NCBI GenBank assembly: GCA_035626335.1
Contig: DASPNW010000023.1
Coordinates: 14,738-78,737, forward strand
From: Pseudolabrys sp.
GTDB lineage: Bacteria > Pseudomonadota > Alphaproteobacteria > Rhizobiales > Xanthobacteraceae
Direction of reading: 5' to 3'
Length of the DNA: 64,000 nt
The notes beneath the pieces were generated by a model, which did no database searches, was not told where the DNA came from, and saw nothing but the letters and a program-made list of their open reading frames with translations. Position 1 is the first letter of the stretch, and every line of letters begins with the position of its first letter. The position numbers were made by a program, and so were the translations under genes. This document shows positions 7,708 through 62,996 of the stretch, one piece after another.

Positions 7708-7770
7708 TGCCGCCCCAGAAGTCATAAGGCGCGCATCGTATCGATTCAAACCGGTATACCGGAAGGGGGG
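7708..7770 (-). promoter_or_regulatory. Conserved promoter/leader module
   Basis: CCCTTCCGG-N18-TACGAT-N27-ATG; same layout before genes starting at 19121, 38777, 61383, 62933. Confidence 0.6.
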
Positions 7771-7791
7771 CTTTGGAAGAGGCCGATTTCC

Positions 7792-7818
7792 ATGTCCGCT
7801 TTGGGCCAAAAGCGGACT
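7792..7818. repeat. Palindromic intergenic repeat (near-consensus copy)
   Basis: ATGTCCGCTTTGGGCCAAAAGCGGACT. Confidence 0.9.
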
Positions 7819-7833
7819 TGGGCCCGTTTTCGG

Positions 7834-8091
7834 TTAGCGGCGGTTTCCGTAAAGCGTATAGTTCGGACAGACGGCCACATCAAAACCGGTGGGTGTTCCG
7901 CCCGGTGTGTAGCCCATTTCGGGATGGCAGCCGCGCGGAACCGGGTTGCAGCCGACGACGGTGCAGGCAATCTGCGGCTGTTCAGCAGCGGCAGCCTTCG
8001 TGTGACGCTTTTTGTGCGCAGGCGCCGCGCTGGCCGGCATCAACGCAAGAGCAAGCACAACGGCCGAAGTAAGGGGTACGATTGTTTTCAT
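7834..8091 (-). CDS. Small secreted Cys-containing hypothetical protein
   Basis: Signal peptide MKTIVPLTSAVVLALALMPASA; CTVVGCNPVPRGCHP; RBS AGAGGA. Confidence 0.7.
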   Translation of the reverse strand: MKTIVPLTSAVVLALALMPASAAPAHKKRHTKAAAAEQPQIACTVVGCNPVPRGCHPEMGYTPGGTPTGFDVAVCPNYTLYGNRR

Positions 8092-8202
8092 CGCGATCCT
8101 CTGAGCCTTTCTGCAAGGCAATGCCATCAAAATCGCCGCCTTTCATTCATAGGTAAATGGTTCGCAGTTCTCGGGCGTGTATTCATGACGCCTCGCAATG
8201 AC

Positions 8203-8571
8203 TCACCGCGCGGCCAAGTTGATGTTGCCCATCAACCAGATTGCCAAGGCCGCAACGAGCCCTGCGCTGGCGAACACTCCCGATACTACGGCAGCGCTAA
8301 ACAGAATCACCCCTAATGCATACGCGATCCTATCGAGTGCCCATCGTATCACTCCGATGAAGCGGCCGAACACCCAATAGAATGCATACAGGAGGAGGAG
8401 GAGCACCAGAACGAGAACTACAATCTTCAGGATCGGAGCGCCCCCGAATTGCGTACCAAGAAGCCGCGAGATCTGGCTGATGCCCCATAAGCATCCGAAT
8501 ACAATCACGTCGACGAGCCAGCCAAATCCCTGCTTAAGCCATGCACCAAACTCCCGAATCAGGTGCTCCAT
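8203..8571 (-). CDS. Hypothetical membrane protein
   Basis: Several hydrophobic stretches; start uncertain. Confidence 0.5.
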   Translation of the reverse strand: MEHLIREFGAWLKQGFGWLVDVIVFGCLWGISQISRLLGTQFGGAPILKIVVLVLVLLLLLYAFYWVFGRFIGVIRWALDRIAYALGVILFSAAVVSGVFASAGLVAALAIWLMGNINLAAR

Positions 8572-8800
8572 ACGCAAGTCCCTTGTTTGGACTGCCCAGC
8601 CACCAACGCTACGGCAACGAATTTGTTTCAAGCGATGTTCCCGCAGTTTGCAGCCATTCACGGCGACTTGATTGCGGGTACAAAAACCTAATTAGCGACA
8701 CCCCGAGACATTTTTGCGGATGCGCGCGAGATTTCCCAAGACACGGCGGCATAGCCTGCCGTAGCTGGCGTGCCAATGCCAGCGGCGGGCCGGTCAACGA

Positions 8801-10024
8801 TCACCCAATGAGAGCCGCCAGCGCACTCGCCACATCAATCGACATGACGGCGATCTGAGCCATGACAAATGCCTGCCCCTGTGTCGTCGTCAGGCTGTCT
8901 ATTTCCTCGGTCGTGAGGCCGGCGATGGCATCCGTGCTTAGACCGGGGATGCCACTCGTACTCGACAATGCGCTGAAGTTGGTCGTCGTCATTCCGGCGA
9001 TCTGCGCACTCGTGAAGCCGCCGGCCTGGGTTGACGTGAAAGCGGCGATTTCGGTCGTCGAAAGGCTATTGACCCCGGCCGTTGTCAAGGCGCCGATGTC
9101 CGCCGCGGTCAGAGCACCAACCTGGGTCTCAGTCAGGTTAGTGATCGTGGTGGTGTTTAGCCCGACAACCTGCACCGGCAACAACAGTGCGAGCGCCAAA
9201 GCGTCAAGATTGTCTATCGACAGACCATTGAGCTGGGCCCAATAGAGGCCTTGCACCTGCGCCGCGGTCAGCGCCGCTACCTGCGCGGTGGTGAGATTGT
9301 TGAGCACCGTCATGTTCAGCGAGCCGATCTGGCCCGCGGTCAGTGCACCGGCCTGCGTGGTAGACAGGCTCTGCAGCTCGGTCGTGGTCAGCTGAGCGAT
9401 CTGGCTGGCATTTAGCGCCGCCACCTGCGTGGCCGCCAGTGCCGCCACCTGCGTGGTGGTCAGATCGCCAATCACTGTCGTGCTCAGGCCGGCGGTCTGC
9501 CCGGCGCCGAGCTTGGTGACGTCAAGCGCGCCCAGGTTGTCGATCGACAGCGCATTGAGCTGGGTCGTGGTCAGGCCCTGCACCTGCACCGTGCTCAGCG
9601 CCGCCACCTGCGTGGTGGTGAGATTGTTGAGGACTGTCGTGCTCAGCGAGCCGATCTGGGCCGCGGTCAGCGCGCTGGCCTGCGTGGTCGACAGGTTCTG
9701 CAGTTCCTCCGGCGACAATGCGCCGATCTCGCCGGCGGTAAGCGCGCTCACCTGCGTCGACGTCAGCTCGGTGATCTGGGTGGTGGTGAAAGCCTGTATC
9801 TGCGCCTCGATCAGACCGCCCATGGTCGTCGAGGAGATCGCCTGAAGCTGCGCCGTCGCCAGGTATTGCAGGGCGGTCGATGTGAGCGCATTGACCTGAT
9901 CCGCATTCAGGACCGCCAGCTGGGTCGTGGAAAAAGCCGCGATGCTGGTGGTTTTCAGCGAGCTGAAGGTTGTCGTCGAAAGACCGGCAATTTTTGCGGC
10001 GCTGATGAAGGGAATAACAGACAT
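8801..10024 (-). CDS. Thr/Ala/Leu-rich octapeptide-repeat protein
   Basis: About 45 units of L-[ST]-x-x-Q-[IVL]-x-[AG]; internal duplication at 327-nt spacing. Confidence 0.85.
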   Translation of the reverse strand: MSVIPFISAAKIAGLSTTTFSSLKTTSIAAFSTTQLAVLNADQVNALTSTALQYLATAQLQAISSTTMGGLIEAQIQAFTTTQITELTSTQVSALTAGEIGALSPEELQNLSTTQASALTAAQIGSLSTTVLNNLTTTQVAALSTVQVQGLTTTQLNALSIDNLGALDVTKLGAGQTAGLSTTVIGDLTTTQVAALAATQVAALNASQIAQLTTTELQSLSTTQAGALTAGQIGSLNMTVLNNLTTAQVAALTAAQVQGLYWAQLNGLSIDNLDALALALLLPVQVVGLNTTTITNLTETQVGALTAADIGALTTAGVNSLSTTEIAAFTSTQAGGFTSAQIAGMTTTNFSALSSTSGIPGLSTDAIAGLTTEEIDSLTTTQGQAFVMAQIAVMSIDVASALAALIG

Positions 10025-10217
10025 TCAGGCAACCCATTCCGACTGGCTGACGCGGTCCCGCCGCGGGACGAATGTAAGAATGCCGGGATGGGTGGAGTTT
10101 CACATTGATGCATTTATTGATTCTGACGATTTTTGGCTTTGGATATTGGTAGTTAAAGCGTTCAAAAAAATTCCGTCAAATTCAATCGCCCCGATTAGGA
10201 ATTCGTTCATGCCTAAC

Positions 10218-10239
10218 GTCGTTTTGGGCCAAAAGCGAC
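10218..10239. repeat. Variant palindromic repeat
   Basis: GTCGTTTTGGGCCAAAAGCGAC shares the TTTGGGCCAAAAGCG core. Confidence 0.6.
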
Positions 10240-10264
10240 CTTCTCTTCTCTTCTCTTCTCTTCT
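10240..10264. repeat. Simple sequence repeat (CTTCT)5
   Basis: Five perfect pentamer copies directly after the palindrome. Confidence 0.9.
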
Positions 10265-10301
10265 GGCATCAATAAAAAAGCGAATAACAATGCGTCAACG
10301 G

Positions 10302-11237
10302 CTAGCGGTATGCGATCAGCGATTGCAACTTGGCTTTCAACCTTGGCCGCCACTCGGCAAATTGTAGCGGCAGTGGCGCCGCGGGGATTTCGGTGGAGCT
10401 GTCATAGGGCAGCAAACGCACGCCCGGTTCAGGTGCATATTGATTAAGGGCGTCGCCCTGTCCTGCCTCCAGGCGGTCGATCGCTCGCATGAGCACGGCT
10501 TCGGTAACCTTCTCTTGCCGCGCAAGGCAGAGATTCCCCGCGCAGGAGTGATAAAGGTAGGTCTGGCCATAAAATCTCAAAACCTTTTCATCGTGCTCCG
10601 CCAAAGCACGAAGCAAGACCGGCGAAAATACAGCGACATGCGAGAACGTTGGAAACATCAGTGAATATTGCAAGCCACGAAGCAAGCGCACCCCAACCTG
10701 ATAGTTACTTACGATGTGCCGCTTAGAATCGATGTGACGGATAAGCGCGATCAGCATATCCAGATCAACAGCGTTCTGAGTAAAGAATGTCGCCGCATTA
10801 TGGGGAGCGGGCGAAATGGCGTGGGTCACACCAGCCCGACGGAGCAGGATAACTTCGCGACCAAAAGCATAGCCGGTGGTCAGGCTTTCGGCTGGAAAAT
10901 CGAATACAAGCCTGGCGGGGTCGAACACGAACACATCCGCGTCGAGCCAAATCACCCGTTGATAGCCGGCATCCAATCGCTCGCGCGTCGCGACTAGACG
11001 GGCGAGGTTGGTGATGGCTTGGGGATTCTTGCTGCCACGCGACAGATATTCCGGACCGCACAAATTGTAGAATTCGTCGCCCGCCAGCGAGTACTCGTAG
11101 TCACGCAACGCCGCCCATTTCTGCACGCTGTGCAGGCAACGCTGTATCCAGGCAGGGATGTTTTGGTTACGGAATGTCTGGATAACGATCGTATCCGATC
11201 GTCTTGACGGGCTCGACAAAAAACAACTCCTTTTCAA
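10302..11237 (-). CDS. Hypothetical protein, possible GT-A-like nucleotide-sugar transferase
   Basis: RVIWLDADVFVFD (DxD); start uncertain. Confidence 0.5.
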   Translation of the reverse strand: MKRSCFLSSPSRRSDTIVIQTFRNQNIPAWIQRCLHSVQKWAALRDYEYSLAGDEFYNLCGPEYLSRGSKNPQAITNLARLVATRERLDAGYQRVIWLDADVFVFDPARLVFDFPAESLTTGYAFGREVILLRRAGVTHAISPAPHNAATFFTQNAVDLDMLIALIRHIDSKRHIVSNYQVGVRLLRGLQYSLMFPTFSHVAVFSPVLLRALAEHDEKVLRFYGQTYLYHSCAGNLCLARQEKVTEAVLMRAIDRLEAGQGDALNQYAPEPGVRLLPYDSSTEIPAAPLPLQFAEWRPRLKAKLQSLIAYR

Positions 11238-11314
11238 GACCTGGCGAGTGGATCAATAAGCCGCGCGTTTGGCTCCGAACCGGTCAATCAAATCTCACAC
11301 CGTAATTCAATGCA

Positions 11315-11341
11315 ATGCCCGCTTTGCGCCGTTAGCGGAGT
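11315..11341. repeat. Degenerate palindromic repeat
   Basis: ATGCCCGCTTTGCGCCGTTAGCGGAGT. Confidence 0.6.
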
Positions 11342-11471
11342 GCATCACCTGTCAATCCGGTCGCATTTTTTTCGTTTGGTGCGCGAAAGCCATATAGCAG
11401 CGCCCACCAGTACGAAAACTATCACGAGCTTCAGGCCCATTTTTTTGCTTGTCGTACCTGGCACGCCAACA

Positions 11472-11645
11472 TCATGGCTGATTTTTTTTAGCCGTGTCTC
11501 TCTCAAATTCCAGTCTAAACCTAGTTTGCTCTTCTTCCAGAAGTCTCAAGATCTCCCTTCTTTTGGCGGCGCTTGTTCTTCTGTTTGCAAGAGCGCGGTA
11601 GAACGCAACATTGCTTCGGCTGAAGAATCTTTCCAGGCCGGTCAT
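11472..11645 (-). CDS. Small hypothetical protein
   Basis: MTGLERFFSRSNVAFYRALAN...ILRLLEEE resembles small rhizobial helical proteins. Confidence 0.4.
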   Translation of the reverse strand: MTGLERFFSRSNVAFYRALANRRTSAAKRREILRLLEEEQTRFRLEFERDTAKKNQP

Positions 11646-11863
11646 GCCGAGCCGAGAGCACAGCACGTTCTGCTGATTGATTTTTGTACTTTTCCCGCCC
11701 TTTCGGGCAGCTCGTTCTTTTGTGGGCGCGCCCATTCGTGTTCCCCAGGATGCGCCCGCCAACGATCTCAAAACGTTACTGCTCCAGGGAACCTGCGTTA
11801 ACGGAGGGTAATTTTTTAAATTACGCCAGCGTGCGATATGTCCGCGTGGCTAAAATGAGCGGC

Positions 11864-12223
11864 TCAAGAGAGCACATTATGCGCCAGTCGAGTGATAACG
11901 CCCGGACTGACATCGTGGGTTTGTGTGTGCTGACGTGAGAGGCGTTCGGGTCCAAAGGCGTCATTAAGACCGTTGAGCAGCCATACCCCGCTCGTCACAA
12001 GAAAGATCAAAAACAGAAATACCACCGCATTTGCTCTCATGCGGTCCCGGTAACTCGCGTCGGACCAAAACTCTTCTCCTCGGTCTCGCGACTGTCGCAA
12101 ATTGTGCATTGGCTGGAACGTCAACGAACGAGACGACCGGAGCTTTTTCTCCCGTCGATAAAACCCCAGATTTACAACGTTGGAACAATCTGCGAAGGGC
12201 GACGCCGGTCGACGGGCACGCAT
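11864..12223 (-). CDS. Small membrane hypothetical protein
   Basis: YRDRMRANAVVFLFLIFLVTSGVWL single TM segment; start uncertain. Confidence 0.5.
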   Translation of the reverse strand: MRARRPASPFADCSNVVNLGFYRREKKLRSSRSLTFQPMHNLRQSRDRGEEFWSDASYRDRMRANAVVFLFLIFLVTSGVWLLNGLNDAFGPERLSRQHTQTHDVSPGVITRLAHNVLS

Positions 12224-12421
12224 TTTATCCTCACTGGCATTTTATCCAGCGACCGCGCCCCGCGAAATAACGCCATCGTCCGGTATTTGTTTCGGACGTA
12301 GACACCCCTACCCCCGCTCGGGGTCAGGTTGAAAATAAATCCTGCATAAATTTTAGGCGAGGAACTGTCTGACTTATTTGTAACTTGATGGAACACAGGT
12401 TTTGGCCTGGCGGAACGTTGG

Positions 12422-13681: not shown

Positions 13682-13683
13682 CC

Positions 13684-16821: not shown

Positions 16822-16856
16822 TAGCGTCGCAGCACTACAGTGGCTGTCCGAGCCGC

Positions 16857-16882: not shown

Positions 16883-16914
16883 TCAAACGGATTAGGAGCG
16901 TTCTGCCGTGGATT

Positions 16915-18128: not shown

Positions 18129-19121
18129 CTATTCGATCACCTCATCAGCAAGCTGCAAAAATGAGCTGGGGACAGAAAGGCCAAGCGCCTTGGCTGTCCT
18201 AAGATTGAAGACGAGTTCGAATTTGTTCGGCGATTGCACCGGCAAATTGCCTGGCGGTTCACCTTTGAGAATGCGGTCGACATAGGAACTCGAACGTCGG
18301 AAGATGTCGGCGGTGTCAGGCCCGTAAGACATCAGACTTCCTTCAACGACGAATTGCCGATAGGGGGAAATGACCAGCACCCGGTGTTCTCCTGCCGACT
18401 TAACGATCGTTTTGCGGACGCCGACGATAAAGATATCCGACCCGGCGATCAGACCGCTGTCCGGATTACGGCCCAACTCTGCAATCGCGGATTCGACCTC
18501 GGCAACACTGCGAACGTGCGCGGCCCGCACCTCGACCGAGGTTTGCTGCTGCAACATTTTGAACGATCGCAGGAAGTCGTCAAAATAGGCCGAGGTATCA
18601 GGATTGAATATCAATGCGACCTGCGACAGGCTTGGCTTGACGTCGCCAAGCATGTTGATCCATTTGCCGACCATTTCGAAATCGATGAAATAGAACCCGG
18701 TAATGTTGGCCTCGGGGCGTGCGAGACTCGAAACGAATCCCTGACCGACCGGATCATTCACCATCGCGAATACGATTGGAGTCGTTCTCTTTGTTGAGCG
18801 CAGTGCGGCTACGATCGGGGTGCTGTTTGCAACAATGACGTCCGGTGCAAGTCGAGTTACTTCCGCGACATGCCTATTGATTGACTCAAGATCGCTCCCG
18901 GTAAATCGAATATCGACCTGAATGTTGCGTCCTTCGATCCACCCCAGATCGCGCATACCTAGCCGGAATGCCTTGACGCGCCTTTGTGCTTCGGCATCCG
19001 TTTCATCGAGGCCAACGAGAACGCTGACCCGACGCATCCGCTCGGATCGCTGTGCCCGTGCAGCAATAGGCCAGGTCGCCGCCGCGCCACCGACAAGCGT
19101 GACAAACTCGCGCCGTCTCAT
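18129..19121 (-). CDS. ABC transporter substrate-binding protein (ABC_sub_bind type), orphan
   Basis: MRRREFVTLVGGAAATWPIAARAQ; ends FNLRTAKALGLSVPSSFLQLADEVIE. Confidence 0.9.
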   Translation of the reverse strand: MRRREFVTLVGGAAATWPIAARAQRSERMRRVSVLVGLDETDAEAQRRVKAFRLGMRDLGWIEGRNIQVDIRFTGSDLESINRHVAEVTRLAPDVIVANSTPIVAALRSTKRTTPIVFAMVNDPVGQGFVSSLARPEANITGFYFIDFEMVGKWINMLGDVKPSLSQVALIFNPDTSAYFDDFLRSFKMLQQQTSVEVRAAHVRSVAEVESAIAELGRNPDSGLIAGSDIFIVGVRKTIVKSAGEHRVLVISPYRQFVVEGSLMSYGPDTADIFRRSSSYVDRILKGEPPGNLPVQSPNKFELVFNLRTAKALGLSVPSSFLQLADEVIE

Positions 19122-19185
19122 CGCCTCCCCCGAGGCCCATGACAAGGCATGGTACGGACTCAAACTAGCACACTAAAAGGAGGCG
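19122..19185 (-). promoter_or_regulatory. Conserved promoter/leader module
   Basis: CCTT...GTTTGAG..TACCAT-N27-ATG with RBS GGGGGAGG. Confidence 0.6.
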
Positions 19186-22192: not shown

Positions 22193-22222
22193 TTGTCCGC
22201 TTTAGTTCCAAATAGCGGACAT
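22193..22222. repeat. Palindromic intergenic repeat
   Basis: GTCCGCT-TTAGTTCCAAAT-AGCGGAC-AT. Confidence 0.85.
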
Positions 22223-38315: not shown

Positions 38316-38777
38316 TCACACTGGCTCTTTGAAGTACACACACCATTTTGGCCTGAATCGTTTCGCTACGTTCGGAGAACAGTTGATCTTGCAGGACGTC
38401 GTCACGCAATCCATCAATGATCTTCCGTTCCCCCCGCTCGAATCTGTTTTAGGTGCTGCGAATTTTGCTGCTGGAGACAAGTTTTGCGGAATAACCTGCT
38501 TAGGTTCGCAGAACCCGCCCCTTCCGCTGATGGTGGCGCGGCACTGTTCGATGGTGACGAAGCCGCAATTTGTGCCACCGCCGGTGCTATCAACTGAACA
38601 CCATCTATAAGGATCGGCAGAGCTCGCGCCGACCGCAAAGAACATTGATGCGCCCGCCACGACACCCAGCATCGATACGCCGGTGCGGCTGGGCCCCTTG
38701 ATTTGTTGCGCTTTTGCGGCGTTCGGCGACGCGGCGGCCACGCCGCCAAAAAAGGTACTGAACTCGCGTCGTCTCAT
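38316..38777 (-). CDS. Chimera: SBP-type MRRREF leader fused to a DUF3551-like Cys-rich protein
   Basis: MRRREFSTFFGGVAAASPNAAKAQQ, second hydrophobic signal, then YRWC...NCGFVTIEQCRATISGRGGFC. Confidence 0.75.
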   Translation of the reverse strand: MRRREFSTFFGGVAAASPNAAKAQQIKGPSRTGVSMLGVVAGASMFFAVGASSADPYRWCSVDSTGGGTNCGFVTIEQCRATISGRGGFCEPKQVIPQNLSPAAKFAAPKTDSSGGNGRSLMDCVTTSCKINCSPNVAKRFRPKWCVYFKEPV

Positions 38778-38840
38778 TGCCCCTCCATGGCTAGGGATAG
38801 GTGCATCGTACCAGCTCAAAGTAGTTTCCTTGAAGGGCGG
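38778..38840 (-). promoter_or_regulatory. Conserved promoter/leader module
   Basis: CCCTT-N22-TACGAT-N27-ATG; RBS GGAGGGG. Confidence 0.6.
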
Positions 38841-38965: not shown

Positions 38966-40366
38966 ATGACCCCATCAACCCGCAGTTTAATTGTCGTCGG
39001 CCAGGGAGCGGCAGGGCTGGCCGCCGCGCTGACGGCCGCCGAAATGGCGCACGCCCGCAACTGGCCAGTCAAGGTCACGCTTGTCGACAAGGCCGACGAA
39101 AGCGAAGCCGGCGGCAACACTCGCTGGTCGCCGTCGTACATGCGGATGGCTTCGCCGACCCGTGTAGAGCCGGGCTTTGTGCACGACTTGCTGAAGGCGA
39201 CCAAATTCCATGGCGACGAGATCTATTTCGCGCTGCTTGCGGCCGAGGCTCCGGCGACCATCAAATGGATCGCTTCGCATGGCATCGAATTCATTCAACC
39301 GACATACTATTTGGCGAAGGGACCGCCGCGCATTCAGCCTTCCGGGGGCGGTCCAACCCTTGTGAAGGACTTGACCCGTGCAGCTCGACAGGCCGGTGTT
39401 GCACTCCGCTACGGCTGTGCTGCGCGTGAAATCGTCAACGATAACGGCAGTATCACTGGGCTCCTTATCGAGCGTGGCGAAGCGCGCGAGAGTTTGCCGG
39501 CAGACGCCATCGTGCTGGCTTGCGGCGGTTTCCAGGGCAACCGCGAGATGATGCGCGCGCAGTTCGGCGACGGCGCCGAGACCATGCGACTGATCTCGCC
39601 CGGCACACGTTTCAACACCGGTGACGGTATTCGCATGGCCATGCAGCTCGGCGCCGATCGCTCGGGCGACTGGAACGGCATGCATGCCGAGCCGGTCGAC
39701 GCGCGCAGCAAAAATTCCGCGCCAGTCGTGCTCGTCTATCCTTACGGCATTGTCGTGGATCGGAACGGTCATCGTTTTTTTGATGAAGGCGGCGGTCTCG
39801 TGCATGAGACCTGGGAATGGCTTGCGCGCGACATACACTTCAAGGCCCCGGATGCAATTGCCTACGCGATCCTCGACAGCCGCATGCTGGACATTGCCGA
39901 CTATCAGCGCGCCATCCGCTCCGAGATGCCGCCGATACGCGCAGAGACACTTGCCGGACTGGCGAAACTCATCGGCGTAGATGCGGACAATCTGGCAAGC
40001 ACGGTGGCAGCCTTTAACGCTGCCTGCACCGGCGATCCGAAACGTTTCGACCCTACACGCTGTGATGGCCTTTCTGCCGATCGCACGCTCAATCCGCCGA
40101 AATCGAATTGGGCGCGCGCGATTATTGTGCCGCCGTACCTCGCCTATCCGCTGGTCGGCGCCATCGCCTACACTTTCGGCGGACTTGCTACCGACGCATG
40201 CAGCCGCGTATTGCGCGATGGCGCCCCTATCCCCGGCCTATTCGCGGCTGGAGAAATTACCGGCCATTTTTATGCGACGGCACCGAACGCTGTTTCCGTC
40301 CTGCGCGCTTTCGTATTCGGCAGGATCGCAGGGCGCGAAGCGGTCGCAAGTTTGGCGCCGAGATAG
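38966..40366 (+). CDS. FAD-dependent oxidoreductase, TcuA/fumarate reductase flavoprotein family
   Basis: VVGQGAAGLAAA, GGNTRWS, LACGGFQGN, NTGDGIRMA, YTFGGL, GLFAAGE; RBS GAAGGA. Confidence 0.85.
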   Translation: MTPSTRSLIVVGQGAAGLAAALTAAEMAHARNWPVKVTLVDKADESEAGGNTRWSPSYMRMASPTRVEPGFVHDLLKATKFHGDEIYFALLAAEAPATIKWIASHGIEFIQPTYYLAKGPPRIQPSGGGPTLVKDLTRAARQAGVALRYGCAAREIVNDNGSITGLLIERGEARESLPADAIVLACGGFQGNREMMRAQFGDGAETMRLISPGTRFNTGDGIRMAMQLGADRSGDWNGMHAEPVDARSKNSAPVVLVYPYGIVVDRNGHRFFDEGGGLVHETWEWLARDIHFKAPDAIAYAILDSRMLDIADYQRAIRSEMPPIRAETLAGLAKLIGVDADNLASTVAAFNAACTGDPKRFDPTRCDGLSADRTLNPPKSNWARAIIVPPYLAYPLVGAIAYTFGGLATDACSRVLRDGAPIPGLFAAGEITGHFYATAPNAVSVLRAFVFGRIAGREAVASLAPR

Positions 40367-53722: not shown

Positions 53723-53906
53723 GCCCCGCCCCGCTAAATGGTCGCCCCCCCAAAGAGTACCGCAAATTAGGGCGGGGATACCTCCATTGTGTCGGCTATC
53801 CCCCACAAAAAACGGGTATTCCCGAGCGCCCAGCGCGCCTGGTTCATGCAGCAATTAATATTGGATTTTCGAGATATCGAGAGGATCAAACGCCGGCGTG
53901 CGACCC

Positions 53907-55036: not shown

Positions 55037-55053
55037 CTCCTGAGTGATCGCAT

Positions 55054-55830: not shown

Positions 55831-56110
55831 TTCCTCTGGAACACGTGAGGCCCGCAGTTCGCCCGTCGCGATTTAAGCGTGAGTCGCGCGATTGTTCTGA
55901 AGTGCGATGCTACCGGCAGCGGAAATGTTTTTGGCATCGGCCGCCGGCAAAGAAGACTTTCATGCTGCCGGATTGGATGGACTCTGGAACGCAATGGTCG
56001 CGTCATTAATCGCAGCCGGCGCGCGAGCACGAAAACGTGATCCTGCGCCGCTACCGCTTTACCTTTGCAGCGCCCTCAGCTGCCCGGATCGGAAAAATTC
56101 GAGGAGTCTA

Positions 56111-56126
56111 GGTAAGCACATTTTAA
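56111..56126 (-). promoter_or_regulatory. CtrA-like motif upstream of minC
   Basis: Reverse complement of TTAAAATGTGCTTACC, identical to 34492-34507. Confidence 0.4.
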
Positions 56127-56313
56127 GTCGCGGAAACTCATGATCACGAAATGCTGCGCTTGTTATTGGCAACGCTGGTCTTTGCGGTCAGCTTCGACGT
56201 TCTTCTGTTCGACGGCAAATATACAGATGCCGTCCACCAAATAGCTGTGGTCGCTGTTCAACACTTCTGAGCTTACGTCACGGCGACAAGTGTGCAAACG
56301 CGAAGGAGCGCCC

Positions 56314-56565
56314 ATGCAATTTCGTACCATGAGAAACGTCTCGGAATGTGCGCCCTTGCCCCAGGTCGCGAAATGCCCCCAGTGTGACGAAGAGATGATA
56401 GCGCCGGAGTGGCTGGAGTACTTTGGAGACAAGAGCCGCGTGCGTCACATCTGGAAGTGCGAGTCTTGCGGTCACGCCTTCGAGACCACCATGTCCTTTG
56501 CAGCGGACCGGGGACGGCGTCGATCCGACCAGCAGCGACCTTTAGCCAAAACGTGGTGGTGGTAG
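56314..56565 (+). CDS. Small Zn-ribbon protein
   Basis: CPQC...APEWLEY...RHIWKCESCGHAFET; RBS GAAGGAG. Confidence 0.75.
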   Translation: MQFRTMRNVSECAPLPQVAKCPQCDEEMIAPEWLEYFGDKSRVRHIWKCESCGHAFETTMSFAADRGRRRSDQQRPLAKTWWW

Positions 56566-56592
56566 GCAGGCTGAATCACGCAGCGCAGACAA

Positions 56593-59500
56593 TCACGCTT
56601 GTCCTGGTGACTTCGCAATGGTCGCGGCTGTACGCGGCAGGACGATCCTAAATTCGGTAAACTCGCCCGGCCGAGTGTCGACATCCACAGATCCGCCGTG
56701 TTGCTTGACGATGATGTCGTGGCTGATTGAAAGGCCAAGCCCGGTGCCTTCCCCGGCCGGTTTGGTCGTGAAGAACGGATTGAACATTTTGTCCCTCACC
56801 TCGGCCGGAATACCGGTTCCGTTATCGCGGATGCTGATTTCGACTCGGTCGCCGAGATCCTTTGTTGCAGCCGTGAGCGTAGGTTCGCAGTCGCCGCCGT
56901 TCGTTTCCGTTTTGCGCTTTATCGCTGCGTAGAAGCCGTTTGAGATCAGGTTGAGCAGCGCTCGTGTAATCTCCTGCGGAAAGAGATCGGCCTCGCCGGC
57001 GGCGGGGTCAAACGATCTCTCCAATGTGATATTGAAGTTCTGCTTCTCCGCCCGAGCCCCATGATACGCGAGGTTGAGGCTTTCCTCGACAAGGGTATTG
57101 ATCTCGACCGGCCGACGCTCGCCCGTGCCCTCGCGCGAATGCAACAACATATTCTTGACGATCGCGTCGGCTCGCCTGCCGTGCTGTACAACCTTGTCGA
57201 GATTGCCACGCAGGATCTTGGTCAGCCCGTCAATCTCCTCGCGCGCCTTGTCGTCGATCGATAGGCCGCTCAAGACATCTTGTAATTCATCGATCAATTC
57301 GCCGGAGATCCCCGAAAAGTTATTTACGAAATTGAGCGGGTTTTTGATCTCGTGCGCGATGCCGGCGGTCAATTGACCAAGTGAGGCAAGCTTTTCCGTC
57401 TGAACCAGGCGATCTTGCGCAGCGTGCAAATCCTCCAGCGACTTCGCCAGCTCACGCGTGCGGGTTTGCACGCTTTCGAACAATCGCACGTTCTCGATCG
57501 CGATTGCTGCCTGGTCGGCGAAAGTCGTCGCCAGCTCAATCTGCTTGTCAGTGAACGGACGAACGTCAGTGCGCGTCAAGCTCAGCACCCCGATCGCAAC
57601 GCCCTCGCGCAGCATTGGGACGGAGAGAACCGTGCGATAATCGCCTAATTTCTGCACCTCAGCCAAAGTGTACTCCGGATCGGCCTTCACGTCGGGGATA
57701 TGAACCGCGCGGCCCTCAAGCAAGGCGCGCCCGAACGCAGAGCCTCGCTCGGCCTTGATTGGAATGTCTTTGACGTAGTCCATGAAAGCCCGAGGGAAGC
57801 CGTGAGCCTCCGCGCGATAGAAGGCTCCACCTTTTTCGCGGGTAATGACGGTTTTTTCCGCATCGCAGAGCCGCGCAGCTGATTCAACGAGGGTTTGCAG
57901 CACCGCCCGTAAATCAAAGGTCGAGCGGCTGATAACCTTGAGCACATCGGCTGTGGCAGTCTGCTGCTGGAGGGACTCACGCAGTTCTTTTAGGAGCCGC
58001 GTATTTTCAATTGCGATCACCGCCTGCGCAGCGAAATTCTGTACCAGCTCAATCTCTTTGTCGCTGAACGGCCGTACCTCTTTGCGATAGATGGCGAATG
58101 CGCCGACAAAATCACCCTCCCGCAGCATCGGCACGACAAGCAATGCGCGCATGCCGGCAACATCAGCCGAGCCGACCGCCAACGGATGGCCGGCCAGGTA
58201 GGCGGAATCCTTTCTGACATCCGCTACTTGAATCGGTTTGCGTGTTACTGCGGTGCGAGTCGCGGGAACGTCCTGACTGAGCGGTATGACGGCCGTTTTC
58301 CATTGCTGCGTGAAAGCCTCCGGCATATCGCCCTGAAACGCAGCGTTGCGGAGCCCGCCTCCTTCGTTCAGCCACATTGCGCCATAATTTGCATCGCAGA
58401 TCTGTGTTGCCTTCTCCAGCATCGCGTTGAATACGGGCTCCAATTCCCCGGGCGAGCTGCTGATGACCTTCAGGACTTCGGATGTCGCAGTCTGCTGCTC
58501 CAACGATTCCCGCAGCTCATTGAGCAATCGGACATTCTCGATTGCAATCACGGCCTGGTCGGCGAAGGTTGTCACAAGTTCTATTTGCTTTTGGGTAAAT
58601 GGATTCACCTCATCGCGGGTGAGCACAAAAACGCCGATCGTCGTCCCCTCACGCAACAGCGGCACGCCTAGGCCAGTTCTGTGGCCGAAGGCCTTCTGGT
58701 AACCCGTCGCCTGGTACTCGGAATCGGCCACCACGTCCGGAACATGGATCGTCTTACCTTCCAGTGCCGCTCGGCCCGTGATGCTGCTTCGATCCAGTTG
58801 TAACGGGTGTGTGGACGCGTACTGCTCGGCCTCGCGCGAGAAGCCGTAGTTCGCGGCAAGCCAGTACAACTCTTCCTCGCGTTGAAAAATGACACCCTTG
58901 TCGGCCGCGCAAAGTTGGGCAGCCGACTTGGTCAGCGTATCAAGCACGGTTTGCAGGTCGAAGGTCGACCGGCTGATAACCTTTAGAACGTCGGCAGCGG
59001 CGGTCTGTTGCTGGAGGGATTCGCGAAGCTCGCTGAGCAGGCGTGTATTCTCGATCGCGATCACGGCTTGCGACGCAAAATTCTTGACCAATTCAATTTG
59101 TCTGACGGTGAACTGCCGTACCTCCTGGCGATAGATGCCAAAAATGCCTACAAGTTCATGATCCTTGAGCAATGGCACAAGCAGAAGCGTACGTGCGCCC
59201 GCATGTTTCGCGAGTGGATCGTCGGGATCTTCCGTTTGCAAGTCTGCAATATGGACAACTTTCTTTGTCGTCGAGAGCTGCTTTAGAGCGAGTGAAACAC
59301 TCGGTGTAACCGCTGGCATCCGTTCAGTGAACTTGAGAAATCCGAGTGGTGCATTGTGAACGGCGACGCGCCGAAATTGATCGCCTTGGCGAAGCAACAT
59401 GGAGCCAAAACTTGCCTCGCAGATTCGCGTCGCGTTCTCGAGCATGGTCTCGAAAACCGTCTTTAACTCGCCAGGTGACGAGTTGATGACCTTGAGAATT

Positions 59501-59679
59501 TCTGAGGCGGCCGCCAACTGTTGCAGCGCCTCGTCGCGCTCGCTGGTGAGTCGCGCGACACTCGTTTCCTTGCCGATAGCGAGAGAACCGCGGCGGCGCG
59601 CGACCCTCGGCCGGCGCGACAATGTCTTGCGGCGACGCCCTTTGGCCGTCTTCCTGCCTGCTTTGTCGCGCCGTCTCAT
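56593..59679 (-). CDS. Soluble sensor histidine kinase with four GAF domains
   Basis: Four units ending AVIAIEN.RL; AGIAHEIKNPLN; NLISNG; DNGTG; GEGTGLGL; start MRRRDKAG. Confidence 0.93.
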   Translation of the reverse strand: MRRRDKAGRKTAKGRRRKTLSRRPRVARRRGSLAIGKETSVARLTSERDEALQQLAAASEILKVINSSPGELKTVFETMLENATRICEASFGSMLLRQGDQFRRVAVHNAPLGFLKFTERMPAVTPSVSLALKQLSTTKKVVHIADLQTEDPDDPLAKHAGARTLLLVPLLKDHELVGIFGIYRQEVRQFTVRQIELVKNFASQAVIAIENTRLLSELRESLQQQTAAADVLKVISRSTFDLQTVLDTLTKSAAQLCAADKGVIFQREEELYWLAANYGFSREAEQYASTHPLQLDRSSITGRAALEGKTIHVPDVVADSEYQATGYQKAFGHRTGLGVPLLREGTTIGVFVLTRDEVNPFTQKQIELVTTFADQAVIAIENVRLLNELRESLEQQTATSEVLKVISSSPGELEPVFNAMLEKATQICDANYGAMWLNEGGGLRNAAFQGDMPEAFTQQWKTAVIPLSQDVPATRTAVTRKPIQVADVRKDSAYLAGHPLAVGSADVAGMRALLVVPMLREGDFVGAFAIYRKEVRPFSDKEIELVQNFAAQAVIAIENTRLLKELRESLQQQTATADVLKVISRSTFDLRAVLQTLVESAARLCDAEKTVITREKGGAFYRAEAHGFPRAFMDYVKDIPIKAERGSAFGRALLEGRAVHIPDVKADPEYTLAEVQKLGDYRTVLSVPMLREGVAIGVLSLTRTDVRPFTDKQIELATTFADQAAIAIENVRLFESVQTRTRELAKSLEDLHAAQDRLVQTEKLASLGQLTAGIAHEIKNPLNFVNNFSGISGELIDELQDVLSGLSIDDKAREEIDGLTKILRGNLDKVVQHGRRADAIVKNMLLHSREGTGERRPVEINTLVEESLNLAYHGARAEKQNFNITLERSFDPAAGEADLFPQEITRALLNLISNGFYAAIKRKTETNGGDCEPTLTAATKDLGDRVEISIRDNGTGIPAEVRDKMFNPFFTTKPAGEGTGLGLSISHDIIVKQHGGSVDVDTRPGEFTEFRIVLPRTAATIAKSPGQA

Positions 59680-59761
59680 CGCCTCCCCCGAGGCTGGAAC
59701 ACGGCACAAAGTAGCACACTGGAGGGAGTGGGATATGAGGTCGGCCAAAAGCCGTTTGGCC

Positions 59762-59789
59762 GTATCCGGCACCGGCCAAAAACGGACAC
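59762..59789. repeat. Degenerate repeat
   Basis: GTATCCGGCACCGGCCAAAAACGGACAC. Confidence 0.5.
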
Positions 59790-59837
59790 TAAGACTTGTC
59801 GCCTCGCCGGCGCGGCAACCGGGCCCGATCGGCGCGC

Positions 59838-60116
59838 TCAGAAATTGGTGTTCTGAATAGCTTTCGGACGTTCGTGGTCAACGCTTGCGCCGCGGGGACG
59901 ATTGAAAACGACCGTACAGGCGGGGCTGAGCTGGCGTTTGTTCTGGGCCAGGCAGTGGGTTACGCGAGTTGCATCCGGGATAGCGCTCAGGCAAAGCCGC
60001 ATCACATCCGGCGTGCAGGCCTCTACATCGGCCTGGCTGTAGGCGATTGCGGGGAGCGGAGCCATGGCTGCGACTACGAATGTGCCGGTGATTGCGGCGC
60101 ACGCAAGCTTACGCAT
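59838..60116 (-). CDS. Small secreted single 4-Cys-repeat protein
   Basis: ACTPDVMRLC...VTHCLAQNKRQLSPAC; RBS GGAGG. Confidence 0.8.
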   Translation of the reverse strand: MRKLACAAITGTFVVAAMAPLPAIAYSQADVEACTPDVMRLCLSAIPDATRVTHCLAQNKRQLSPACTVVFNRPRGASVDHERPKAIQNTNF

Positions 60117-60340
60117 GACAAACCTCCAAGACGAGCACAGAACTGCCTTCCGTTCCGTGGTGAATCCCGCGGCATATTTTCGAAATGGCGCGGCCGCGTA
60201 AGGCTCAATATTTGTAAGCACTCGCCTGCGTTGCGACGATCTGATCCGCCAATTAACCTGACCAGGTAACGTTAAGGTTGAGAGCGTTCGTGCTGCCAAT
60301 GCATACAGAATCACCGGGCGAAACTTGTCGCCTTGGCGGC

Positions 60341-60361
60341 TCCGAACGCATTAGCGGACAA
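60341..60361. repeat. Degenerate repeat
   Basis: TCCGAACGCATTAGCGGACAA. Confidence 0.45.
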
Positions 60362-60408
60362 TGAAGACGTTAAGTGCGCGTTGAGTCAGAGGCGGGAAAC
60401 GGCCCACC

Positions 60409-61383
60409 TCACTCAATTACCTCATCCGCCCGTAGCAGAAACGGTCCTGGGATCGTCAGGCCGAGCGCCTTGGCGGTCGTTAGATTGATGACAAGCTCGA
60501 ACTTCGTTGGCTGCTCGACAGGGATATCGCCAGGTTTCGTCCCCCGCAAAATCTTGTCCACGTAGTCTGCCGAATGTCGGAACAGATCGGAATAGTTTGG
60601 TCCGTAGGACATGAGGCCCCCGGCTTGAACAAAATCGCGGGTACTGAAGACCGTCGGCAGCTGCGCCCCAAGCGCAAGCGTGAGGACGCGCGTGCGGTTG
60701 GCAACAACGAGTTGATCGACCACGACGTAAAGAGCGTCCGCTTTGGACTTAAGCACCTCGAATCCAGGAGCGATATCCTCCGGCCGCCGGATTACGAGTG
60801 GTGCAACTTCGAGGCCCAACCTGCGAGCTGCGGCCTGGGTCTCGCCCATCTCCAGCACGGGCTGGGCGTTGTCAACATTGTACATAATTGCCAACCGGCG
60901 TAACCGCGGGACAACCTCACGCAAGAGTTCGATTCGTTTGCCGGCAAGTTCGCCCGCCTGGATCGATAGCCCGGTAACGTTGCCGCCCGGTTTGGCGAGA
61001 CTTGCGACCAAACCATTTCCGACCGGGTCGATCCCCACCGCAAAAACAATCGGGATGACCGTCGTCGCCTGCTTTACGATGGGGACGGCGGTTCCGACCG
61101 TGACAATAACGTCGACCTTAAGGCGAACAAACTCTGCCGCAATCTCGGCGTAGCGCTCGGAGCGGCCCTCCGACCAGCGATACTCTATCGCGACGGTGCG
61201 GCCCTCGATCCAGCCGAGTTCGCGCAGACGCGCCACAAAAGCAGCCGTCCATGGGCCAAAGGCCGAAGCATCCGCACCGAGGAACCCGATGGTCGGCAAC
61301 TTGCCCGATTGCTGCGCGCGCGCGGCGAGCGGCCATGCAGCCGCCGCCCCGCCGACAAGCGATATGAAATCGCGCCGCCTCAT
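60409..61383 (-). CDS. ABC transporter substrate-binding protein (ABC_sub_bind type), orphan
   Basis: MRRRDFISLVGGAAAAWPLAARAQQ; ends INLTTAKALGLTIPGPFLLRADEVIE. Confidence 0.92.
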   Translation of the reverse strand: MRRRDFISLVGGAAAAWPLAARAQQSGKLPTIGFLGADASAFGPWTAAFVARLRELGWIEGRTVAIEYRWSEGRSERYAEIAAEFVRLKVDVIVTVGTAVPIVKQATTVIPIVFAVGIDPVGNGLVASLAKPGGNVTGLSIQAGELAGKRIELLREVVPRLRRLAIMYNVDNAQPVLEMGETQAAARRLGLEVAPLVIRRPEDIAPGFEVLKSKADALYVVVDQLVVANRTRVLTLALGAQLPTVFSTRDFVQAGGLMSYGPNYSDLFRHSADYVDKILRGTKPGDIPVEQPTKFELVINLTTAKALGLTIPGPFLLRADEVIE

Positions 61384-61443
61384 CACCAACCCGAAGCTCA
61401 AAGGCGCATCGTAGCGGTTCAAACCGGCCAACCGGAAGGGGCC
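61384..61443 (-). promoter_or_regulatory. Conserved promoter/leader module
   Basis: CCCTTCCGG-N18-TACGAT-N24-ATG; very similar to 7708-7770. Confidence 0.6.
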
Positions 61444-61502
61444 TTGGCGCGCTTTTAGGCGAAGGTCTAGGTCGGTGCGGTCAGTCTTGCGAGACCGCGG
61501 CG

Positions 61503-62429
61503 CTAGCGTATCGGTTCATTTTTCTTCTGTTCGAATGGATTGAATTTCCGCAGTTTCTCGAGCAGACCGCCGCGTTGCGGGGCCTTCGGGTTGCCCTTTT
61601 GTTGACCGCGATTCTGCTGCTGCGGAGCGCCGGGCTGCCGGAGATTCTTCGGCCGCTGGTTGTTCGGCTGCGGGCGGTTCGGTCCGCGCAATTGGCGACG
61701 CTGGATCGTCATCTGCCGGCCAATATTGTGCGTAGCAAACAGCCGCTGCACCATGCCGCGGTCACGCGCCGCTTCCTGTGGCGAGATTCGAAACGGCAGG
61801 GCAGCGAACTGCCCGCCCAGGCCGCGCCGGATGGCAAATGCGCTCGACCCTTGTGTCAGCGCGCCGAGCCGCGCGCCCTGCGGATTGAAAACCTCTATCC
61901 GGCCCACACGCCCATCGGCATCCGGATAGAGTTTGATTTTGGCCTCACCTGCTGCGGCGTTGTCCGGAACATCGACGACCCCGGTTGTGCCGCGAATACC
62001 GAGATTGGCAGTCGGAGTCGAAATCGTCATATCGCCGGTCTTTGCAACCATGCTGGCGACAAACGCGACCGTGCCGCGGGCGATGTTGAGCACCGCTTTG
62101 TTGCCTTTGGCGCCCTCCTCGTAGACGAATTCGTTGACGACGACACGCGCATTTGCAGTGAGGCTGAGGGTCGTCTCGTCGTCGAAGGTAACGCCAAGCG
62201 ATGAGTTGGCGCCGGTCTGCAAGACGTCTTTTTTGTAGACAGCGTCGCTCACATTCAGCGTGGTGGGCGGCATGCTGCCGCGCGTCACCGTCGTAATGCC
62301 TTGCAGTGTCGCGATTTGTCCTATGGGGTCGTTGGCATCCTGACTCGCGTCCGTTTGATTTTGCGCGCGTGCCACGAATGGCCACGCAATCGCGCCGGTG
62401 GCAAGTGCGATAAACTTGCGGCGCCTCAT
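61503..62429 (-). CDS. FecR-domain exported protein with low-complexity Gln/Pro/Arg tail
   Basis: MRRRKF leader; VLQTGANSSLGVTFDDETTLSL.ANARV, G.VAFV, TPTANLGIRGT. Confidence 0.8.
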   Translation of the reverse strand: MRRRKFIALATGAIAWPFVARAQNQTDASQDANDPIGQIATLQGITTVTRGSMPPTTLNVSDAVYKKDVLQTGANSSLGVTFDDETTLSLTANARVVVNEFVYEEGAKGNKAVLNIARGTVAFVASMVAKTGDMTISTPTANLGIRGTTGVVDVPDNAAAGEAKIKLYPDADGRVGRIEVFNPQGARLGALTQGSSAFAIRRGLGGQFAALPFRISPQEAARDRGMVQRLFATHNIGRQMTIQRRQLRGPNRPQPNNQRPKNLRQPGAPQQQNRGQQKGNPKAPQRGGLLEKLRKFNPFEQKKNEPIR

Positions 62430-62453
62430 TCCCATTTCCATTCCCATTCCCAT
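62427..62453 (-). repeat. Hexamer repeat (ATGGGA)n giving five in-frame ATGs
   Basis: ATGGGA ATGGGA ATGGAA ATGGGA ATG. Confidence 0.85.
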
Positions 62454-62551
62454 TCTCGAACTTCAGGACGCATCTTAGCGACTCGAGCAGAGATATTGAA
62501 AGCGTTTGGCGATGTCAGGCTTGGGATGAGACTTTGCAACAGGACATTGGC

Positions 62552-62579
62552 ATGCCCGCTTCCTCCGAAAAGGGGACAT
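62552..62579. repeat. Degenerate palindromic repeat
   Basis: ATGCCCGCTTCCTCCGAAAAGGGGACAT. Confidence 0.6.
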
Positions 62580-62666
62580 TCGTCTGTGCGTTCGGCATGC
62601 TTGCTAACGGCGAGAAACGCTTGTCAACAGATGTGGCGCGCTAGGCAACGCTGTGTCGCGTTTTCA

Positions 62667-62933
62667 CTATTGCCCCTGCTTGGACGATGGCGTCTTGGCT
62701 GAACGAATGTTTCCCCACGGATCGGTCGATTTTTTCTGGTCGGGAAGTTTCTCCATCGTCGACCGATATGCGTCGTCCACGGCTTTACGCTTTTCTTTCT
62801 CCTCGGGGCTCAGCGGACGCTTGTCGGCATCGAGATTTATCCCGGGCATGAACTGCTGCGCGGAAACGCTTCCGGTCAACGCCATGATGATCGCAATAGA
62901 ACCGAATAACCCGAAGCATACCCGACGTCTCAT
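62667..62933 (-). CDS. Small secreted hypothetical protein (rhizobial type)
   Basis: MRRRVCFG signal; PGINL, EEKEKRKAVDDAYRS, DPWGNIR. Confidence 0.75.
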   Translation of the reverse strand: MRRRVCFGLFGSIAIIMALTGSVSAQQFMPGINLDADKRPLSPEEKEKRKAVDDAYRSTMEKLPDQKKSTDPWGNIRSAKTPSSKQGQ

Positions 62934-62996
62934 CGCCCTCCTCCCAAGCGCAGAAGAGGCATGGTAGCGCCGCGACCGAGCGCCCGGAAGGGGTCG
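62934..62996 (-). promoter_or_regulatory. Conserved promoter/leader module
   Basis: CCCTTCCGG-N17-TACCAT-N27-ATG; RBS GGAGGAGG. Confidence 0.55.

Follow-up and report, generated by a model that had tools for sequence, protein, structure and literature searches.

A block comprising a putative promoter and gene start recurs before binding-protein genes and unrelated genes in Pseudolabrys-type Hyphomicrobiales

Conserved 5′ ends comprising promoter, ribosome-binding site, and leader are carried by the ospE/ospF/elp genes of Borrelia (the upstream homology box) and by the variable-lipoprotein genes of Mycoplasma, the mature parts of which are unrelated or divergent. These 5′ blocks spread by recombination among paralogous loci, and the systems are plasmid-borne or serve antigenic variation in host-associated bacteria. 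Here, we describe a block of approximately 75 nt (hereafter, the cassette) that includes a putative promoter, a ribosome-binding site, and the first codons of a gene, and that recurs in front of unrelated genes in a 64,000-nt stretch of Pseudolabrys sp. DNA (assembly GCA_035626335.1, contig DASPNW010000023.1, positions 14,738 to 78,737; the whole stretch is called the window) and in related genomes. The kind of working is the same as in Borrelia and Mycoplasma, but the carriers are chromosomal, include cytoplasmic kinases, and belong to a free-living soil lineage, and the leader is of the twin-arginine (Tat) type, in contrast to the lipoprotein signals of those systems.

The closest concept in the literature that we considered is that of putative mobile promoters (Matus-Garcia, Nijveen, and van Passel 2012; PMC3575422): highly similar upstream DNA precedes non-homologous genes of one genome, without any association with known insertion sequences, and a role in rewiring expression has been proposed. 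The survey was confined to positions −150 to −50, homology running into coding sequence was discarded, and most families were pairs (PMC3575422). The identity required there was ≥80% over ≥50 nt; the best cross-family pairs of the cassette differ at 4-5 of 63 positions, a kinase copy (locus L103) and a binding-protein copy (L067) differ by 6.3%, and several other pairs differ by 8-11%. The downstream coding regions are non-homologous, as in that concept (PF04392, multi-GAF HisKA/HATPase, FecR, DUF3551, MFS, GST, DsbA, and P-type ATPase). Unlike the surveyed non-coding segments, the cassette extends through the ribosome-binding site into the first codons, and in many cases further. Furthermore, it is present not in pairs but in roughly a hundred or more copies per genome, with a clear donor family.

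The cassette represents a lineage-wide, previously undescribed family of reused promoter/gene-start blocks with a clear donor and a preserved capture series. Our preferred reading, to which we assign a probability of approximately 0.6, is that it is the 5′ end of a hugely expanded orphan family of PF04392 substrate-binding proteins, repeatedly captured by other genes, with recombination from copy to copy. In the window, five clear and two degraded copies were found, every one on the minus strand. The pattern CCCTT-N20-23-TACSATGC had four exact matches, again all on the minus strand (7733-7767, 38803-38837, 61406-61440, and 62959-62992), against 0.01 expected by shuffling, and none of 100 shuffles reached four. 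The copy at 19121 has TCCTT in place of CCCTT and fits the rest of the pattern. A profile built from relatives matched exactly seven places in the window and no others: 19121 (62.4 bits), 7707 (55.7), 61383 (50.8), 38777 (47.3), 59679 (29.7), 62933 (21.3), and 62429 (16.7). Likewise, ATGAGRCGNCG, which encodes the MRRR start, had seven matches, all on the minus strand and exactly at the seven starts given in an earlier, sequence-only reading of the window. The −10-like hexamer lies 27 nt before the ATG at 7707, 19121, 38777, and 62933 and 24 nt before it at 61383. That reading had described these spacings and the seven starts correctly, and likewise the FecR-gene variant and the loss of TACGAT from the kinase copy. 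The gene identities that it gave were also borne out, with three substrate-binding proteins, a DUF3551 chimera, a FecR protein, and a kinase recognized by Pfam, and an 88-aa protein matching no Pfam family.

Pfam places the three PF04392 binding proteins of the window at 7707, 19121, and 61383. Their cassettes are full copies: 7694..7769 before gene 7707..6712 (TACGAT at 7740-7735 and ATG at 7707; exact pattern, profile, and Pfam), 19108..19183 before gene 19121..18129 (−10 TACCAT and 5′ block TCCTT; profile, sequence, and Pfam), and 61370..61443 before gene 61383..60409 (leader 3 nt shorter than in the other copies; exact pattern, profile, and Pfam). Another full copy (38764..38839; exact pattern, profile, Pfam, and alignment with leaderless relatives) precedes gene 38777..38316, the product of which is chimeric: a 25-residue binding-protein leader (MRRREFSTFFGGVAAASPNAAKAQQ) is joined to a complete DUF3551 protein with its own signal peptide, the Pfam DUF3551 match covering residues 38-106. 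On the plus strand next to it, a FAD-binding open reading frame listed from 38843 probably starts at Met42, at 38966 (MTPSTRSLIVVGQGAAGLA); the 38777 cassette would therefore lie in a divergent intergenic region of approximately 190 nt.

The remaining copies depart further from the full form. Before the multi-GAF histidine kinase gene 59679..56593, the cassette (59666..59728; profile, alignment, and Pfam) has lost its −10 region, including TACGAT, with a 12-nt deletion, and the product (1028 aa, four GAF domains by Pfam) overlaps with the binding proteins in MRRRD only. In the 17 other kinase copies, all from other genomes, the −10 is kept; the window kinase may be silent or driven from elsewhere. 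The diverged cassette (62922..62993; exact pattern and profile) of the 88-aa secreted protein gene 62933..62667, which encodes a signal peptide, retains CCCCTT, TACCATGC, the ribosome-binding site, and ATGAGACGTCGG, and has lost TTTGA. The degraded cassette of the FecR-domain gene (62427..62502; −10 TAAGAT; profile and TRF), with the MRRR start at 62429, carries the variant TAAGATGC at 62477-62470, and the leader of its product (MRRRKFIALATGAIAWPFVARAQ) is of the binding-protein type. Between its ribosome-binding site and MRRR start, TRF found a hexamer repeat, (ATGGGA) × 4.8, at 62427-62455 on the minus strand. The repeat gives an in-frame MGMGMEMG and varies in copy number among orthologs (MGMEMG, MGMG, MG, or none), and slippage there may change the translation start or efficiency of the FecR-like gene.

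To determine the distribution of the cassette, 185,579 species genomes were scanned with CCTT-N12-TTTGA-N5-TACSATGC, with no condition on the downstream gene. At least 116 loci were obtained, and approximately 70 of the matches listed were judged genuine. The genuine matches listed came from metagenome-assembled genomes labeled Pseudolabrys, Undibacter, Hyphomicrobiales, or uncultured Alphaproteobacteria, apart from a few contigs that are evidently mis-binned, and the remaining ones listed were isolated chance matches in unrelated phyla. The window itself derives from a peat or wetland organism, and the nearest named relatives of its proteins are Pseudolabrys. Copies were counted as profile matches of ≥25 bits in the listed loci and the window; this count, a lower bound, gave at least 92. 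In short form the consensus is CCCCTTyC-N12-GTTTGAGCCGnTACGATGCC-TGTCCTGAGCCTCGGGGGAGGCA-ATGAGACGGCGCGA, and in full gCCCCTTyCAGtGTGCtaGTTTGAGCCGnTACGATGCCtTGTCCTGAGCCTcGGGGGaGGCaATGAGACGGCGCGA. When copies were pooled, the 5′ edge of conservation was abrupt at CCCCTT; within subtypes it reached further upstream. Seventeen copies that do not fit the search pattern nevertheless have these conserved blocks, so the conservation is not an artifact of that pattern.

Behind the 92 copies are 54 PF04392 binding proteins, 18 multi-GAF histidine kinases, and 20 other genes. The kinase products start with MRRR(D/S/G)K, followed by a long basic stretch. The 20 others include an MFS transporter, a DsbA-like protein, a P-type ATPase, a glutathione transferase, a DUF3551 protein, and, in three genomes, a conserved 326-330-aa protein of unknown function; two further genes, for a GYD protein and for a TctC protein, lie behind broken MRRR starts, and several of the 20 copies are solo remnants. 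The reuse before unrelated genes that the sequence-only reading had proposed is upheld as homologous DNA extending well beyond the window. The scenario that it named as refuting, a motif found only before binding-protein paralogs and their deletion derivatives, fared unevenly: the cassette is complete in multi-GAF kinases and its promoter half occurs elsewhere with a different start codon, so it is not confined to the paralogs, but the non-family cases look like captured or fused binding-protein 5′ ends, which comes close to the deletion-derivative part. In the loci examined, 45 of 54 near-full-length binding-protein genes have the cassette, and those without it are mostly second genes of tight pairs. 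By a rough estimate, the PF04392 family has 100 or more scattered copies per genome.

Two arrangements in relatives were observed in the same survey. In one (L122, 19957-20927), tatA, tatB, and tatC lie directly downstream of a cassette-bearing binding-protein gene, which is probably a coincidence, though relevant to a twin-arginine leader. In two loci (L055, ~5750-5800, and L056), the first ~27 nt of the cassette are tandemly duplicated (CAGCCCTTTTCAGGATGTCAATCTGTTT then CAGCCCTTTCAGAGTGTCAATTTGATCGG) before the gene for the unknown 326-aa protein.

Comparison of the sequences points to shared DNA ancestry of the copies and not to mere resemblance. Codon 2 was AGA or AGG in 53 of the 72 binding-protein and kinase genes, compared with 9.5% of the Arg codons elsewhere in the same genes, and codon 3 was CGG in 78%, compared with 22% elsewhere. 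Recognizable variants of the 12-nt variable block were common to binding-protein, kinase, and other genes of different genomes: 103 binding-protein/kinase pairs had ≤3 mismatches over 17 variable-block positions, whereas 38 were expected from column composition and the maximum in 200 shuffles was 70. Subtype-specific upstream linkers of ~40 nt, leading into a palindromic repeat, were likewise common to several gene families. The mean distance between binding-protein and kinase copies (0.31) was smaller than that among binding-protein copies (0.36). Single-linkage clustering of the variable block merged nearly all copies into one continuum, so discrete subtypes were counted by eye. Same-genome pairs were no closer than between-genome pairs (0.34 vs. 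0.31-0.36), so there was no sign of wholesale homogenization (concerted evolution) within genomes.

These comparisons bear on whether the similarity arose independently, by selection for one dedicated sigma-factor or regulator site together with an optimal translation start. Conserved positions do coincide with expected polymerase contacts, positions −22 to −14 are conserved beyond what RpoD needs, and the cassette is strongly constrained in orthologs, as a shared regulon signal would predict. Such independent origins are, however, highly unlikely, given that variable-block subtypes and 40-nt linkers are common to several families, the same rare codons are used, 13-35 binding-protein codons lie inside DUF3551 and FecR-like genes, and cross-family similarity at unconstrained positions, when tested, exceeded the column-composition prediction. 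Co-regulation is likely a consequence of copying.

The extent of the homology fits repeated capture. The cassette runs from about −62 to +14, with some fusions reaching +105, and its homology ends on the 3′ side at different points: directly behind the −10 in a DsbA gene; behind the ribosome-binding site in the GST, MFS, and ATPase genes and that of the unknown 326-330-aa protein; behind codon 4 in kinases and some DUF3551 proteins; behind 13 codons in some DUF3551 proteins; behind the complete signal peptide in FecR-like proteins and the window DUF3551; and behind 35 codons in one DUF3551 lineage, where it extends to the first motif conserved in the mature binding protein (QQPKRMRRIGIL). No terminal inverted repeats were found for the cassette or for the cassette together with the upstream palindrome (10/23 and 11/24 terminal matches). 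The variable 3′ end and the lack of terminal inverted repeats make the non-family copies look like captured or fused binding-protein 5′ ends. The plug-in module of the sequence-only reading, if taken as a fixed unit, is not supported on either count, and the cassette does not appear to be a discrete transposable unit with fixed ends.

Under capture, the donor would be the orphan PF04392 substrate-binding-protein genes of Pseudolabrys-type Hyphomicrobiales, the 5′ end of which would have been repeatedly fused to, or placed before, other genes at differing breakpoints. The nested 3′ limits would then be the outcome of fusion at arbitrary breakpoints, with selection keeping the useful ones; secreted proteins would retain the signal peptide and cytoplasmic kinases would retain four codons only. 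Once two genes carry the cassette, recombination between the copies could swap the variable middle, with the palindromic hairpins (left) and the conserved 3′ half (right) as possible homology anchors.

The palindromes belong to a family of repetitive extragenic palindromic (REP)-like sequences (ATGTCCGCTTTTGACCCAAAGCGGACAT, often doubled; core AAAGCGGACAT / ATGTCCGCTTT, with loops TGACCC or CGGGGGT). A link between the cassette and palindromes had been suspected by the sequence-only reading and proved real: 57 of the 92 copies (62%) have a REP-like hairpin ≤120 nt upstream, typically 20-50 nt away, compared with 21 of 301 control genes (7%) in the same loci. The window contains 16 core 8-mers and the related loci (547 kb) contain 370, and doublets alternate in orientation. 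The flanking hairpins are thus short imperfect palindromes with many intergenic copies and inverted pairs, as are REPs and REPINs. In the window, one such palindrome (GTCCGCTTTGGGCCAAAAGCGGAC, 7794..7817), of the repeat family flanking most cassettes in relatives, lies 25 nt upstream of the 7707 cassette, and another lies upstream of the 4190 gene region (4430..4452; sequence). REPs also directly follow the stop codons of the window binding-protein genes ending at 6712 and 18129. A further palindrome was seen at 22195-22220, and half sites were seen near 2330, 5420, 6700, 18110, 23764, 28507, and 33588. The association may mean merely that binding-protein gene units are REP-bounded on both sides, or that REPs provide homology for recombination.

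The same association could instead reflect a non-autonomous mobile element, with REP hairpin, linker, and cassette moved as a REPIN-like or MITE-like (miniature inverted-repeat transposable element) unit by a REP-associated transposase or another recombinase. The 62% of copies with a REP ≤120 nt upstream, against 7% of controls, would fit such an element, as would the identity of REP-linker-cassette junctions between binding-protein genes and kinase genes from different genomes, and FecR-like and DUF3551 cassette genes that sit in unrelated neighborhoods. We regard it as unlikely in view of the absence of terminal inverted repeats (the 10/23 and 11/24 matches above), the variable 3′ end of homology, and the 38% of copies without a nearby REP. 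Because REPs are found at the 3′ ends of binding-protein genes too, a tandem array would in any case place them before the next cassette. In a stronger form, REP-guided recombination or a REP-associated transposase would actively transplant hairpin, linker, and cassette again and again, as a unit of terminator, promoter, ribosome-binding site, and start/export signal for any gene that follows. This form seems improbable; if true, hundreds of unrelated genes would have come under one common expression control over evolutionary time.

Relatives of the non-family genes of the window were compared for presence and absence of the cassette. FecR-like orthologs (73-93% identity) all start with M(K/R)RR(E/K/R)F(I/L)...WP...(A/S)(R/H)AQ, and in all five loci examined the cassette was detected, at 13 to 49 bits. 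DUF3551 relatives have 0, 4, 13, 25, or 35 binding-protein codons ahead of their own signal peptide. Among the DUF3551 loci fetched, the cassette was present (44-60 bits) in two leader-bearing forms (25-codon and 35-codon) and in neither of two leaderless forms. The 88-aa family has MRRR or MERRQFIKLLGG forms with the cassette or its 3′ half, and a MTYP form with nothing. In the DUF3551 and 88-aa families, relatives without the Arg-rich start were thus also without the cassette. Each of the three odd genes of the window has family members elsewhere with the cassette. Cassette-bearing FecR-like and DUF3551 genes sit in mutually unrelated neighborhoods, and because the neighborhoods of these orthologs all differ, empty and filled sites are not comparable.

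It could be argued that only binding-protein genes use the cassette and that all other occurrences are dying remnants of duplication. Decay does occur: solo blocks with broken start codons were found (L036, L104, L076, and L078), the window kinase copy lacks its −10, and an orphan C-terminal PF04392 fragment (~4300-4420, minus strand), directly upstream of the binding-protein gene 4190..3207 (MRRRQFIALLGG, start ATGCGACGGCGC), is direct evidence of decay of a family member. As the whole explanation, decay is very improbable: FecR-like orthologs (73-93%) all retain the leader and the five loci examined retain the cassette (13-49 bits), it is complete in 17 of 18 kinases, and, in front of an unrelated gene, the promoter half shows no difference between genomes in which the coding DNA has diverged by 12%. 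Gene 4190 itself, the fourth binding-protein gene, was missed by the sequence-only reading, the seven MRRR genes of which otherwise stand. The product of gene 4190 starts with MRRRQF, encoded by other codons; the segment at 4176..4255 (minus strand) was assigned by eye, weakly, as a decayed cassette remnant, and the 3′-half profile scores only 7.3 bits there. All eight MRRR-start genes of the window lie on the minus strand. The cumulative GC skew of the plus strand declines steadily, and the eight genes may all be co-directional with replication.

The most likely function of the cassette, as judged from its sequence, is promoter activity. It would form an RpoD-type promoter with CCCTTyC at approximately −40 to −33, a freely varying 12-nt spacer block, and then GTTTGAGCCG-n-TACGAT, and transcription would be expected to start ~19-22 nt before the ATG. 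In the consensus, G, T, A, and T occupy −14, −12, −11, and −7. The leader of ~20 nt has a strong ribosome-binding site (GGGGGAGG) 6-7 nt before the ATG, and the start is fixed as ATG AGA CGG CGC GA (MRRR D/E). TACGAT or TACCAT lies at a plausible fixed distance from the ATG and is among the most conserved positions, also in copies outside the search pattern. TACGAT has the three key −10 positions T−12, A−11, and T−7, which are retained in the degraded FecR copy (TAAGAT), and a conserved G two bases before the hexamer is as in extended −10 promoters. Conservation sets in near −40, and the variable block fits the part of the spacer that is not read by polymerase. In Bradyrhizobium japonicum, a family-level relative, mapped RpoD promoters have TTG-N16-18-TATA and a GC-extended or TGnTA −10 (PMC4842269).

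Constraint acts on the cassette: positions −38 to −1 were 100% identical between two MRRR-lacking orthologs of the unknown 326-330-aa protein, compared with 88% for the coding sequence and 50-62% further upstream. In a few of the cases for which the upstream distance was measured (14 in all), the preceding gene ends just 24-49 nt before the cassette, leaving no space for a separate promoter.

In the binding proteins, the MRRR start continues into a predicted Tat-type signal peptide (MRRREFI..GGAAAAWPLAARAQQ). The RR-x-F-(L/I) motif, a hydrophobic core, and A-x-A (ARA|QQ) are recognizable in the binding proteins, the FecR-like protein, and the DUF3551 chimera, and MRRR(D/E)F(I/L) fits the S/T-R-R-x-F-L-K motif of Tat signals. 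The cassette would thus supply secreted proteins with a Tat-type signal peptide as well, and the term expression/export module used in the sequence-only reading seems apt. The kinases lack such a signal: only MRRR(D/S/G)K is kept and a long basic, non-hydrophobic stretch follows, so they are presumably not exported.

Alternatively, the whole 62 nt might be transcribed from further upstream and act as a structured 5′ untranslated RNA (a riboswitch, a thermometer, an anti-ribosome-binding-site hairpin, or a small-RNA target). A small hairpin containing the ribosome-binding site, GCCUC-GGGG-GAGGC, can be drawn for the consensus, and in three window copies the variable block has CCGG-N4-CCGG or a comparable hairpin. 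Against shuffled sequences, however, the folding z was −0.2 to +1.2 in seven of eight sequences (the consensus and six window copies being among those folded). The ribosome-binding-site hairpin had no compensatory change and its central pair was broken in half of the copies, the variable-block hairpin was complete in 6 of 88 copies, and no Rfam match was found at gathering or permissive thresholds. Partial copies, moreover, retain the 5′ half without the half containing the ribosome-binding site. A structured RNA is therefore most unlikely. Pairing of CCCCTTCC with GGGGGAGG, seen by eye in the 19121 copy, did not generalize.

Other regulatory sites were compared with the cassette by eye. None of RpoN (GG-N10-GC), EcfG (GGAAC-N16-CGTT), and RpoH (CTTGAA-N16-CCCAT) agrees with it in both sequence and spacing. 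For FliA, GCCGATAA resembles GCCGATAC but the −35 misfits. Nor does any of the FixK/FNR, Irr, and RirA boxes agree in both respects.

Several observations weigh against the preferred reading or its promoter part. The loci were picked by a pattern in the 5′ half of the cassette, so the family proportions are biased, and the copy-number estimate is a rough one. The nearest neighbor of a kinase copy was another kinase copy in 94% of cases; part of the kinase spread is thus ordinary family expansion after capture, and much of it may stem from one capture, with fewer exchanges than the subtypes suggest. With respect to the promoter, the −35 is poor: TTCCGG/TTCCAG matches TTGACA at two of six positions and has TTC instead of TTG. 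TTCCAG, spaced 18 nt from the −10, has only the TT of TTGnnn, with the conserved CCCTT just upstream. A scan for consensus promoters found nothing in 56000-64000. Positions −22 to −14 (GTTTGAGCC) are conserved as strongly as the −10, which is unusual for a plain RpoD promoter and could reflect an extra factor, another sigma factor, or recent common descent. Finally, no transcript start is mapped; RNA searches with three binding-protein genes yielded no run at useful identity, and the one metatranscriptome found contained only 90-95% relatives and a REP region. Because of the weak −35, the empty consensus scan, the over-conserved GTTTGAGCC, and the missing transcript start, we treat promoter activity as likely only, and the sigma70-like promoter of the sequence-only reading is matched well by the −10 (TACGAT/TACCAT, by position) and poorly by the −35.

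The order of the four cassette-bearing genes at the end of the window is not an assembly artifact, since contigs from four independent metagenomes cover 59300-63300 and jointly span the two repeat-induced break points. Community depth, a sign of how often these ends recur in the source communities, spikes 4-8-fold over leader and cassette. Over the last ~130 nt of the binding-protein gene 61383..60409 (60372-60505), depth is 30-40 times the baseline and contigs break there; the depth profile of this gene is that of a family with conserved ends and a variable middle. Joints of metagenome contigs on the window were not read as deletions, the simplest explanation being other paralogs that match two conserved pieces.

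Among repeated DNA elements, the flanking hairpins resemble REPs, bacterial interspersed mosaic elements, and REPINs, but the cassette itself is not palindromic. REPs are short palindromes at gene 3′ ends with many intergenic copies, and Br-REP1 and Br-REP2 have been described in Bradyrhizobium (PMC5082802). The REP found here (ATGTCCGCTTTTGACCCAAAGCGGACAT) differs from Br-REP1 (CCGGAATCTCGAGATTCCGG) and is also unlike Br-REP2, and that paper does not describe REPs linked with a promoter cassette (PMC5082802). Correia elements and enterobacterial repetitive intergenic consensus sequences also place promoters by unrelated genes as repeated DNA, but the cassette has neither terminal inverted repeats nor fixed ends. 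It is neither a MITE nor a riboswitch, nor is it a REP in its own right.

In practical terms, the repeats break metagenome assemblies at cassette points, and gene callers miss or extend MRRR starts, which makes start codons ambiguous. The cassettes form an unusually clear natural series of promoter and 5′-end capture, with one donor, several breakpoints, and intermediates in related genomes, and the series documents the gain of expression and export signals by new genes; as such it illustrates the capture of promoters and signal peptides well, without amounting to a new principle. If the cassette is an active promoter, one sequence type would drive a large share of the transport-related, sensory, and secreted proteins in an abundant uncultured peat and soil group, and would offer a simple handle on the prediction of co-expression.

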